From sequence record KP682380.1: a DNA stretch of 64,000 nt, one strand, 5' to 3'. Source of the DNA: Escherichia phage PA27. Positions 9,001 to 12,000 of this stretch are shown piece by piece; within the stretch, counting starts at the first letter, position 1; every line of letters starts with the position of its first letter. Position numbers: made by a program.

Positions 9001-12000
9001 AAGACCACTCGTGATGGGGTTGGCCTGTGTAGTTTGTCGGAGCTAATCGCCTCCTGACTTTGCAGGTTTGCGCGACGAGCTCTACGGCGAGAAGCTGCGG
9101 TGCCTTTAAATTCTGTTTTTCTGGACATAGATTCCTCCCGAATAAACTTTGGCGATGCAATCTCGAAGCTCCTCCTGAGACGGTTGCTTCGGCATTGCAT
9201 CCCACAGCTTATGTGGTTGGGTGATCTGGCTTTTCAGCCACGTAGTCGAGAGTCGACGTTGTTTAAAGAGCCTGCCAGTCTGTTCCATTTGGCTTCCAGC
9301 GTCCTGCTGATGGTTAAATAGTACGATATGTACTTCACTTGGTCAATACAATTTGTTCTAAAACGGGGCGTTTTTTTACAACGCTTTGTATTTAATAGTA
9401 TTGTTTTTTAGCGTGGGTGTATTGCCTCGGCGATGTAAGGAGAGATCAGAATTGCGTTGTTTAGTGAGTTGTATCTATTTATTTTCCAATAAATACAATT
9501 GGTTATGTGTTTTTTTGGGCGAGAGGAAAAGAAAACCCGGCATGGAGGCCGGGTTGATGATTAGCGGTGTGGCCTTGAGCGATAATGCTCACACACATGT
9601 TCAAGATTTCCATGCCTTATCCGTTCATAGGCATTCACATGAACTTCTCGATCGAATTGGTCATTCAAATTGTATGTAGACATCTGTGTTTTCTCATATT
9701 GGCGGCAGCCCTACAACCGCTTGAAAAAATGTACCAGACGCGCTAAGGTTACATCGCAAATATTGTGTACCTTAACAAGGGCTCCTTTTGGAGGCTCTGG
9801 TTAAACAGCATCAATGTCGGACTGGGGAGTTGGACATTGTGCTGAATGCTTTTGCATTATTGAGGCCGAACGTAAACCTTCAGAATTGAAGAGATGCGTT
9901 CGGCTTCTTCGTTTGTGATATCGTTAGGAATGCCTTTAATCGTTACTGTAACCCCTGATTCAGGTCGAAGAACTACTGGAAGATCATAGGTATGAAGTGC
10001 ATTAGCCTTGCCTTCGACTTTTGTTGGTTCGCCAGTCAAATCTTTTTCCTCACTGGATTCTTTGTCAATCGGAGTGTATGGGATTTCTTCACCAGACTGG
10101 AAAGCTACAAACTTTTTGATTGCACTTTCCATGCGGCTTTTATATGCAGTAATGCTGCTGTCGCTAGGCTTCGGCTCAGTTGCGTTGATGTATCGCTCGG
10201 CAAGCTCATTCACATCAAGCTGAGTAACATCACCCATTTCCTCTTCTTGGACTACCGTTAAGAGGCGAGCGGATGAGTTTTTTAAATTTCGAGCGGTGGC
10301 CTCCTTCATTATGTTCAGCGACATAAGCTCTTCAAGGAAGTCCTTGAATGCCTGCACGCTAACGTTTGACTTTGCCATTTGCTCTCTCTCTAAGTTATTG
10401 ACTCAGATCGAGTTTATCCAGGAATTGATTTGCATGCAAGACTCAAGTCTTGAGAATTTCCGTTCAAGATCCACTCTCAATAAAAAAGGCCGCACCTCTG
10501 CGACCTTTCATCTCCTAAATCTCTTTTCTCTTACCTAAAGAAACAGCAGGCTGGGTCAGCCCTAACAACTTCAAGTGCATCGGTCAGAGAAAGCTCCGTG
10601 CTATACAGGTGTTATTTCATATCTTTTTGCATCCAATAAATTTTCCATCTGTCCAGAGAGCGGATGCACTTGATTCTTGTTGATGGCAGGACGTTTTTTC
10701 ACCTGCCTCACCCTGCCATACAGGACGCTGCTCACCGATATCTATCGTCCGGTCATTGATGTTATAGACAATATCCAGATCATTACGGATATACTCAGAT
10801 GGCCTTATGCTTTCAATGAATAGATGAACTTCTTTTTGACCGCTTGATACTCATGGCCATTAAACTCCATCTATCCTCTTTACCCAAACGTCTCTTCAGG
10901 CCATTGGCTGGCGATAACTTTCCCCACAACGGAACAACTCTCATTGCATGGGATCATTGGATATTGCGGGTTTAGTGGTTGTAGAAACACCTGACCGCTA
11001 TCCCTGATCAGTTTCTTGAAGGTAAATTCATCACCACCAAGTCTGGCTATGCAGAAATCGCCGGGCTCAACAGCTTGCTCAGGGTCAACCAGAATTAACA
11101 TCCCGTCAGGAAAACTAGGTTTGGAACCTGTTGGTGCGGTCATTGAGTTACCTTCAACCTCAAGCCAGAATGCAGAGTCACTGGCTTTTTTGGTTGTGCT
11201 TACCAATCTCTCCGCATCACCTTTGGTAAAGGTTCTGAGTTCTGGAGAGAACATCCCAGCCTGAACATGAGAAAAAACAGGGTACTCATATTGTTTTTTA
11301 ACTGGGGCCGATGAGTATTCGCCAACAGGTGAAAATGTCCCGTCGTGGTTGAATGATATGTTATCAATACCAAGGTATTTAAACACCACACCAATATCAC
11401 TAAGAGATGGATGACGAGATCCGCGCAACCAGTGTCCAATTCCACCCTGCGTCATACCTAGCTCTTCGGCTAACTTCTCTTGAGTTATGCCGAGCTCTTT
11501 CATTCTGGATCTAGCCAGTTCATACCATTTCATTTTCATGTCCTTATTATTACGCTCTGTACTGGAACCATCCATGCACAATGTGTATTTTTACTTGTAT
11601 TTGAGAAGTACATATTGTATTTTTTTATTCGTGGTTACTATGGAGGGCATATGAGCAACCTACGAAAATATCGAGAGTCACTGAATATCTCTCAAACAAC
11701 ACTTGCTAAGGCAGTTGGATGCACACAGGGAGCTATCGGACATTGGGAATCTGGTCGTCGCTTCCCAGACCTTAAAACATGCCGTGCTCTTGTTGCGTGT
11801 CTAAACAAGTTAGGCGCAAAAGTAAGTCTTGATGACGTGTTCCCGCCGGAGCACAAAGCCGCTTAATAAGCGGAGCCGCTCTTTGTAACAACGGACATTC
11901 GTCCTACGTCGCTGAAAAGCGAGTCCCAAGATATCTGACCAACTAAGGCCATATGCGTTTCCACGCATACCTTTCAACTAGCTATTCACTATTGGAAATC

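Follow-up and report, generated by a model that had tools for sequence, protein, structure and literature searches.

Putative nutL and nutR sites with a tetraloop boxB in the VT2-Sakai-type Escherichia phage PA27

N antitermination in lambdoid phages is described for several boxB types, which form the background for two sites in Escherichia phage PA27 (sequence record KP682380.1). These sites had been proposed, from the sequence alone, as matched nutL and nutR candidates for an N-like antiterminator encoded by a 90-amino-acid (aa), Arg-rich open reading frame (ORF). They were analysed here within a stretch of 64,000 nucleotides (nt) of this record, referred to as the window, whose positions are used throughout. 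In lambda, the boxB loop is of the GNRNA type with the fourth base extruded (PMC12027372), while the GACAA loop of P22 forms a GNRA motif in which the C, its third base, is looped out and in contact with the peptide residues Arg11 and His7 (PMC12550061; PDB 1A4T), and the boxB of phi21 is a hexaloop (PMC12550061). For boxA, the consensus is UGCUCUUUA in the ribosomal RNA operons (rrn) and CGCUCUUA in lambda, the rrn boxA-spacer reading ...UUUAACAAUUUA (PMC2724277). The nutR/tR1 region of H-19B was investigated by footprinting of N, NusA and Rho on spacer and boxB, by RNase H and RNase T1 and by antitermination assays (PMC3526286); it contains an overlapping rut site, and its hairpin homologous to the one described below is protected by N and NusA (PMC3526286). 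For the N protein of epsilon34 it was stated that it 'likely has a novel BoxB specificity', in a study that did not identify the boxB itself (PMC2629481).

The two PA27 sites (nutL, 9227–9272, minus strand; nutR, 11877–11922, plus strand) are each composed of four parts in the same order, namely an rrn-like boxA, ACAAC, a spacer hairpin followed by UACG, and boxB (Table 1). Very probably, they serve as nutL and nutR for N antitermination in a VT2-Sakai-type prophage encoding Shiga toxin 2 (Stx2). The sequence comparisons support the view that the sites are in kind an ordinary lambdoid pair, homologous to those of H-19B and HK97, and in detail a tetraloop variant of the N/nut system. What is expected of lambdoid nut sites was found, i.e. 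a site on each early transcript, a boxA, a conserved boxB hairpin of the GNRA type and, after nutL, an N gene whose product carries an arginine-rich motif (ARM). The boxA-like element and the hairpin that the original prediction had assigned to each site are present, 9227 and 11922 being the 3′ ends of the boxB hairpins. Its placement of the pair on opposite strands flanking the immunity region was confirmed as well, nutL lying just downstream of pL (minus) and nutR just downstream of pR/cro (plus). The CTACGT spacer described as common to both sites is in the sequence, and its UACG part is invariant in all 46 aligned sites of the family. The supposed 'same loop' (GCUGAAAAGC) is indeed a 10-mer common to both sites; it is, however, not a loop, but comprises 3 bp of the 5-bp stem together with the tetraloop GAAA. 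The spacer hairpin between boxA and boxB is an addition to the earlier description.

As 14-nt RNAs, the boxB elements read UGGCUGAAAAGCCA and UCGCUGAAAAGCGA, with the second stem pair being G-C in nutL and C-G in nutR, i.e. a compensatory change; no U-tract follows either of them in the sequence. ACAAY is nearly invariant across the family (alignment A2, see below). The nutL boxA (GGCUCUUUA) agrees with the rrn consensus at 8 of 9 positions, and together with the bases that follow (GGCUCUUUAAACAAC) it closely matches the E. coli rrn boxA-spacer UGCUCUUUAACAAUUUA, including the extra U of the 'consensus' boxA (PMC2724277). The rrn antiterminator needs neither N nor boxB, whereas the window adds a phage-specific boxB and N to this element. 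A plus-strand 'terminator' at 9245–9257, returned by the terminator scan, is the complement of the nutL spacer hairpin. An Rfam scan of positions 8000–13000 at E ≤ 1 gave no match, and the search returned no nut or boxB family.

Nut sites of the H-19B/HK97/933W type have boxA, ACAAY, a dyad spacer (hairpin), UACG and a boxB with a 5-bp stem in common with the window. Over ~115 nt, beginning with the spacer hairpin and ending at the cII start, the window nutR differs from that of H-19B by one substitution and by the loss of the loop C (GACAA → GAAA). The spacer hairpin (GGACAUUCGUCC), the linker, the boxB stem (UCGCU/AGCGA) and the tR1 region of the H-19B and HK97 nutR are essentially as in the window, and the missing loop C is the sole difference between the window nutR boxB and the boxB of these two phages, whereas the boxA stretch diverges between H-19B and the window. 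In H-19B-type phages N directly follows nutL, as it does in the window, and the proteins are homologous (41% identity) with a common C-terminus (CLPNVALYAAGYRKSKQLTAR). The ARM, in contrast, is RRRERLKAKALANG in H-19B and RRRARRANLQSQ in the window N, which at 90 aa versus 127 aa is without a central segment of ~37 aa. HK97/H-19B-type phages carry GACAA at both sites and an N ARM GNSRSRRRERLKAKALANG. Thus, the spacer hairpin characteristic of the H-19B/HK97 class was found in the window, but GAAA and RRRARRANLQ were found where this class has GACAA and RRRERLKAKAL; because of this loop and this ARM, the window was assigned to a sister class of H-19B/HK97 and not to the class itself.

In nutL of the HK97/H-19B type, no boxA was recognisable before the spacer hairpin (...GGUGAAUAUACAAC...; H-19B, L125, 2740–2830 minus; HK97, L003, 3300–3350), and the H-19B nutR boxA is CGCUAUUU, whereas both window sites have a good boxA. 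This contrast hints that the window class and the H-19B/HK97 class may differ in how far they depend on NusB/S10. The spacer hairpin, which H-19B and HK97 share, is conserved in this nut lineage, and its likeliest role is to prevent the spacer from mispairing with boxB. For H-19B, Neely and Friedman are said to have found in 2000 that the dyad symmetry of the spacer is itself not essential, and that breaking one arm inactivates the site via alternative pairing.

The P22 boxB (GCGCU-GACAA-AGCGC) resembles that of the window in its 5-bp stem, its U-A closing pair and its GNRA-type fold, and the C-terminus of the P22 N is homologous. Without the looped-out C it is of the window type, the window loop being one base shorter. 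P22 has no spacer hairpin, and the ARM of its gp24 differs (GNAKTRRHERRRKLAIERD); with four loop bases and no C, the window falls outside the P22 boxB class. The lambda boxB (GCCCU-GAAAA/GAAGA-AGGGC) likewise shows the 5-bp stem and the U-A closing pair, and its loop minus one A is GAAA. The ARMs of lambda (DAQTRRRERRAEKQAQW) and of Sakai (TAASRRRARRANLQSQE) are alike at 9 of 17 positions, including RRR-x-RRA and Q15, with the core RRRxRRAxxQ in common, and by sequence the Sakai pattern is closest to that of lambda. The Sakai ARM, however, has Glu at the position of lambda Trp18 (W18), boxA is rrn-like (CUUUA) in the window and of its own type (CUUA) in lambda, the spacer hairpin is present in the window, and the body and C-terminus of the window N are unrelated to lambda N. 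The four-base loop and the Glu in place of Trp18, which in lambda stacks on the loop, place the window outside the lambda boxB class as well. As read from the sequences, the window boxB corresponds to either pentaloop, that of lambda or that of P22, minus the extruded base.

Local folding gave −6.5 kcal/mol (z −2.4) for the nutL boxB alone and −5.9 kcal/mol (z −2.7) for the nutR boxB alone, and the segments of spacer and boxB (34–35 nt) folded as two hairpins in the minimum free energy (MFE) structure, with −12.0 and −11.9 kcal/mol (z −2.9 and −2.4), respectively. RNA structure prediction, which had been suggested as a check, therefore returned the hairpins in local folds (z −2.4 to −2.9), but folds of 76 nt were not better than shuffles. 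For this reason, thermodynamics by itself was taken as weak evidence, the hairpins were argued from local folding and covariation, and relatives were collected. A nutR-spacer pattern yielded 120 IMG/VR loci and an N-protein alignment 80 more; in addition, a loose boxB pattern was run against one-genome-per-species contigs. Since this pattern specifies only 16 bases, most of its non-enterobacterial matches are chance, and only sites with a complementary stem plus a spacer hairpin, a boxA or an adjacent N gene were kept. The filtered sites lie in Citrobacter, Klebsiella, Pantoea, Mixta, Atlantibacter, Yokenella, Kluyvera, Rahnella and others.

The resulting alignment A2 comprises 46 distinct sites, from boxA to boxB, of many Enterobacterales; three HK97-type nutL rows are off by one column, giving the 3 'not paired' cells at each of four of the five helix 2 pairs (39–53, 40–52, 41–51 and 42–50). 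Standard pairs were formed by 93% of the cells, compared with 25–46% when the partners were slid by 1–3 columns, and 96 double-change cells were counted versus 31 ± 3.6 in shuffles. Compensatory changes were found at 7 of the 10 pairs: in helix 1 (spacer), 91% of the cells were paired with such changes at 4/5 pairs, and in helix 2 (boxB), 94.8% with changes at 3/5 pairs. The spacer stem occurs as GGAC/GUCC, GUCGA/UCGAC, GGUGA/UCACC, GAUUCA/UGAAUC, GGCC/GGCC and GGUGC/GCACC. Changes in the boxB stem concern pairs one and two; in addition, the closing pair changes from U-A to C-G in two cases. Because of these double changes the closing pair was considered formed and the loop truly four bases long; a hexaloop UGAAAA with an open closing pair was ruled out by them.

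Single elements of the sites are not unusual in the window: GCTGAAAAGC with up to one mismatch gave 7 matches (6.0 expected in 64 kb) and GCTCTTTR also 7 (4.2 expected). For the composite pattern GCTCTTT-N15-35-CTACGTNNCTGAAAAG, with 2 matches in 64 kb versus 0 in 100 shuffles, chance is excluded. With a whole-site covariance model built from A2 and run with filters off, the two sites reached 62.4 and 57.4 bits, whereas no other place in the window exceeded 9.3 bits. A third perfect match to GCTGAAAAGC is found at 62861–62870 on the minus strand, where a terminator-like hairpin (AAAGGAGC-UUCG-GCUCCUUUUUUU) follows closely downstream; having no boxA, spacer or extended stem, this match was rejected as chance.

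The assignment of the 90-aa ORF as N is now much better founded than from the sequence alone, owing to the co-variation of ARM and loop described below. The ORF matches Pfam N_peptide (PF25694, E = 2e-32, residues 23–114 of the long form) and PHROG 271 ('anti-termination protein N-like'). Its start (9128) is located 98 nt after the nutL boxB, and the ARM occupies residues 10–24. In GenBank, N is given as 114 aa with a start at 9200, which is probably too long. The start at 9128 was favoured because the Pfam match covers the 114-aa form from residue 23 on, because a GGAGG Shine-Dalgarno sequence stands 5 nt before the ATG at 9128, and because all homologues begin with M-[ST]-R-[RK]-T there. A PDB sequence search with N returned no match even at E ≤ 10. 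The segment of N and nutL was found in 818 of 5,426 complete E. coli genomes, and N is often labelled 'hypothetical protein' in RefSeq E. coli genomes.

Among the relatives, boxB loop type and N ARM change together. Of the distinct ARMs left by dereplication, 25 stood beside a GAAA nutL and 3 beside a GCAA nutL, all of them reading RRR..R..[L/M]Q; the ARM form of the tetraloop class is RRR-x-[RHQS]-R-x-x-[L/M]-Q. RRRERLKAKAL was contained in 6/6 distinct ARMs beside a GACAA nutL. Loop class thus matched ARM type in 34/34 distinct ARMs, with no exception. Within loci, the loop classes of nutL and nutR were concordant in 167/167 cases (126 tetraloop/tetraloop, 41 pentaloop/pentaloop, 0 mixed), and Shigella phage 75/02 Stx has GCAA in nutL and GAAA in nutR. 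The best single evidence for a joint change is a natural swap between the Salmonella phages g341c (L323, 480–1060) and SPN9CC (L324, 480–1081), with 97% identity across a 241-nt stretch of nutL and the 5′ end of N. Their N proteins are identical over the aligned residues 41–113 (g341c numbering), with one substitution N-terminal of these, at residue 39. Besides one DNA substitution and the C-terminal tail, the remaining differences are ~20 nt at boxB and the ARM codons, g341c having CGGCU-GAAA-AGCCG with RRRERRAALQ and SPN9CC a loop of the GUCAA/GACAA type with RRRERLKAKAL. The pL of g341c, which has the tetraloop boxB, is the same as that of epsilon34. The tetraloop ARM was found joined to three C-terminal tails, ...YRKSKQLTAR, ...QKMRGKSIPLI, which is similar to the C-terminus of lambda N, and ...LQKRKKITAR (Pantoea, Klebsiella, Mixta, Atlantibacter).

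Some further boxB variants were noted in the collected loci. Non-standard closing pairs occur with pentaloops, namely C opposite C in the SPN9CC nutL (GCUC-C-GUCAA-C-GAGC) and U-G in nutR of L031 and L085 (UCGCU-GACAA-GGCGA). In L232 (Yokenella regensburgei, ~6820–6900) and L316 (~4150–4260), an extra hairpin with a GAAAA pentaloop stands directly 5′ of the nutR-type boxA. These hairpins are lambda-like (GCGCU-GAAAA-AGCGC and AGCCU-GAAAA-AGGCU), and the tetraloop boxB is also present 3′ of the spacer hairpin; two boxB types therefore surround one boxA, the upstream one in rrn-like order. ECP1 (L325) and mEpX2 (L326) encode another N class with the ARM DDNARNRRRARRQAQREQ; their candidate nutL boxB, CCCGC-CGAAAU-GCGGG after GGCUCUUUAA, has a six-base loop and lacks this kind of spacer hairpin.

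From sequence, position, covariation, homology to a studied nutR and the co-variation of ARM and loop, the following steps of binding and antitermination would be expected. After loss of the repressor, polymerase starting at pL and pR would transcribe nutL within the first few tens of nt and nutR within the first few hundreds of nt, respectively. In the nascent RNA, boxA (GCUCUUUA/G) would be open to NusB-NusE (S10) and the ACAAC/spacer region to NusA, and the GAAA-tetraloop boxB would be bound by the N-terminal ARM of the 90-aa N (GTAASRRRARRANLQSQ). With the remainder of N touching NusA and RNA polymerase, the elongation complex would become resistant to termination. Leftward, this complex would read through the terminator-like sites at 8536–8557 and 8390–8411 into cIII/kil/gam/bet/exo; rightward, it would pass the Rho-dependent tR1 and then the sites at 15096, 17212 and 18146 toward the ORF taken as Q and hence stx2. 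In this way, the genes for recombination and lysogeny would be expressed along with Q. Extra roles known from lambda nut sites, namely an overlap with Rho loading at tR1 and translational autoregulation of N at nutL, would be compatible with nut function.

Several points weigh against this account. A lambda boxB with a GAAA tetraloop is said to bind the N peptide and to be poor in the NusA-dependent complex (work of Legault et al. in 1998 and Chattopadhyay et al. in 1995), and by lambda rules a tetraloop boxB would not obviously be sufficient. In H-19B, boxA, NusB and S10 were reportedly dispensable in the hands of Neely and Friedman in 2000, and the boxA step may not be required in the window phage either. 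The 76-nt folds (9215–9290 minus; 11870–11945 plus) gave z −0.6 and −0.9, and in their MFE structures boxA (GCUCUUU) is paired with the loop and the 3′ arm of boxB (GAAAAGC), so that boxB is not formed. This pairing may represent an alternative structure or be an artefact of the folding; it was dropped as a working structure, local folds and covariation favouring the two hairpins. Furthermore, the relatives were sampled by sequence patterns (spacer hairpin and UACG), and the co-variation counts do not represent independent evolutionary events, the pentaloop side being essentially a single clade plus P22. Despite this, the pattern of loop and ARM in the sequences is what a specific peptide-RNA pair would predict.

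Whether the tetraloop also constitutes a specificity of its own was weighed separately. A GNAA tetraloop together with an RRR-x-R-R-x-x-L-Q ARM is a reasonable candidate, with a chance somewhat short of even, for a fourth N-boxB recognition class beside lambda, P22/HK97 and phi21, built on a minimal GNRA loop without a looped-out base. To our knowledge, a GNRA-tetraloop boxB class (GAAA or GCAA) with its own ARM has not been characterised before. The literature searched, which did not cover the older papers on HK97, H-19B, VT2-Sa and the P22 boxB requirement, contained no description of VT2-Sakai/Sp5 nut sites or of a tetraloop boxB, and a prior account is possible; the sole pointer to such a class that it yielded was the epsilon34 statement cited above, a prediction from a genome study (PMC2629481). 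Alternatively, the sites may be functional nut sites whose tetraloop confers no separate specificity, N proteins of the GACAA class (HK97/H-19B/P22) and of the tetraloop class cross-reacting and the loop difference being neutral drift. The stem, the closing U-A, the linker and the spacer common to both classes fit this explanation, as does the single-base difference in nutR, and P22 N is said to tolerate many GNRA-like loops (Cocozaki et al., 2008). All the loops also reduce to a GNRA fold, P22 GACAA doing so with its C looped out; yet this C contacts Arg11 and His7 (PMC12550061), and its presence or absence should therefore matter. Neutral drift is, moreover, at odds with the concordance of loop class between nutL and nutR and with ARM type in every case counted above, and with the replacement of ARM and boxB together in g341c versus SPN9CC, and we consider it rather unlikely that the tetraloop lacks a specificity of its own.

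Two further explanations would deny the sites their role as N targets. The hairpins might be RNase III or other processing sites, attenuators, parts of a Rho terminator or translational operators of N, with the boxA words being coincidental. Such roles could be envisaged, as nutR overlaps the counterpart of the H-19B rut/tR1 region, the N start follows nutL at a distance of 98 nt, the single elements are statistically ordinary in the window, and lambda nutL reportedly also mediates translational autoregulation of N (Wilson et al., 1997). They do not compete with nut function, however, but are compatible with it, and what was found makes their being the sole function highly improbable: there is no U-tract after either boxB, the four-part architecture occurs once per early transcript and nowhere else in the window, loop type and ARM of the neighbouring N vary together, and in H-19B, N and NusA protect the homologous hairpin (PMC3526286). 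That the similarity of the two sites merely reflects a duplicated or recombined block, a mosaic relic without function in this phage, is barely credible. Lambdoid phages are highly mosaic, and nutR is nearly the same in H-19B and HK97, phages of unrelated immunity. Nevertheless, the two PA27 sites share functional elements alone (boxA, ACAAC, UACG and the GCU-GAAA-AGC core), while the spacer hairpin sequences differ and the second boxB pair is inverted, with pairing kept in each; since only functional elements are common and pairing is preserved, selection on structure is indicated and not recent duplication. The module is, in addition, present in the 818 E. coli genomes given above and in several other genera.

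Should the tetraloop class be a fourth recognition class, the N-NusA-polymerase complex would assemble without the extruded loop nucleotide implicated in work on lambda, and a single-base loop indel with an ARM swap would be enough to insulate the early regulation of co-resident Stx prophages from one another (H-19B/933W versus VT2-Sakai type). Through this class, the contribution of the looped-out base in lambda and P22 could be tested in a natural setting; the g341c/SPN9CC pair and the one-base difference between the window and H-19B nutR are ready-made specificity-swap material. N peptide and boxB are a textbook model that is also in wide use for tethering, and a plain GNRA-tetraloop class would add an orthogonal pair. 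Among complete E. coli genomes, ~15% carry the class, which is also present in several other enterobacterial genera. In the phage type treated here, N antitermination would be the gate from prophage induction to Q and hence to Shiga toxin 2. The exact nut sites provide targets for mutagenesis and reporter assays in a clinically important phage, the records of which are without nut sites and probably give a wrong N start.

Table 1 Features of the putative nut sites and of the surrounding early region (positions in the window)
Feature	Position	Strand	Basis or remark
nutL boxA, RNA G-GCUCUUUAA	9263–9272 (word itself 9271→9263)	minus	Sequence, pattern matches; conserved in relatives
nutL ACAAC	9258–9262	minus	A2 columns invariant or near-invariant
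nutL spacer hairpin, GUCGA-CUC-UCGAC	9245–9257	minus	MFE fold, helix 1 covariation
nutL UACG linker	9241–9244	minus	Invariant, 46/46 aligned sites in A2
nutL boxB, UGGCU-GAAA-AGCCA, 5-bp stem	9227–9240	minus	Local fold, helix 2 covariation; predicted target of the N ARM
nutR boxA, CGCUCUUUG	11877–11885	plus	Sequence, pattern matches
nutR ACAAC (preceded by UA)	11888–11892	plus	Sequence, A2 conservation
nutR spacer hairpin, GGAC-AUUC-GUCC	11893–11904	plus	Same as in H-19B and HK97 nutR
nutR UACG linker	11905–11908	plus	Sequence, A2
nutR boxB, UCGCU-GAAA-AGCGA, 5-bp stem	11909–11922	plus	Local fold, covariation
N gene, 90 aa	8856–9128	minus	Pfam PF25694, PHROG 271; ARM MSRKTEFKGTAASRRRARRANLQSQ
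pL promoter-like site	9318–9346	minus	Promoter scan; TTGACC, 17 nt, TACTAT
pL operators	9319–9335, 9344–9360 (both overlapped by pL site); third 9377–9393		AP005153 annotation
pR, 'putative major rightward promoter'	11594–11622	plus	AP005153; OR operators 11548–11622
tL1 candidate, intrinsic terminator-like	8536–8557	minus	Terminator scan; on pL transcript downstream of N; predicted N target
tL2 candidate, terminator-like	8390–8411	minus	Terminator scan; precedes ea10/cIII/kil/gam/bet on pL transcript
First strong intrinsic terminator-like site of pR transcript	15096–15119	plus	Terminator scan; after replication genes
Further terminator-like sites of pR transcript	17212–17228, 18146–18167	plus	Terminator scan; before ORF taken as Q
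tR1-like region, nutR to cII	11923–12007	plus	Homologous to Rho-dependent tR1 of H-19B, one substitution

The 3.6 kb surrounding both sites are 100% identical to VT2-Sakai (Sp5, E. coli O157:H7 Sakai), and likewise to Stx2 phage II, the Morioka Stx1 phage and the PA phage series. In the matching records gam, kil, cIII, ea10, N, cI, cro, cII, O and P are annotated, in one of them (AP005153) also operators and promoters, whereas no nut site is annotated in any of the matching GenBank records. Features of AP005153 were transferred to the window by an offset of +7299, and gene names were taken from AP000363; the promoters and terminators listed are predictions or annotations and not mapped transcript ends. 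By comparison with the lambda record, the gene order of the window is that of lambda (N, nutL, pL ... cI ... pR, cro, nutR, cII). The start of nutL, which sits between the pL promoter-like site and the N start, is ~46 nt downstream of the pL −10 hexamer (9318–9323). The start of nutR is 11 nt past the cro stop codon (11864–11866) and upstream of cII. The annotated pR, which serves both cro and nutR, was missed by the promoter scan of this analysis and is known from AP005153. According to the ORF map, the ORFs taken as Q and as stx2A lie beyond the terminator-like sites at 15096, 17212 and 18146.

In the interval between nutR and cII, a perfect 7-bp hairpin (UAUGCGU-UUCC-ACGCAUA, 11952–11969, plus) was observed, which is the same in H-19B and HK97 and lies within the region acting as the Rho-dependent tR1 in H-19B. 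A 173-aa gene (9857–10378, minus) matching PHROG 2602, of unknown function, takes the position of lambda rex. A strong intrinsic terminator (9534–9555, minus) is located between this gene and pL and would keep cI-side transcription out of nutL and N in the lysogen.

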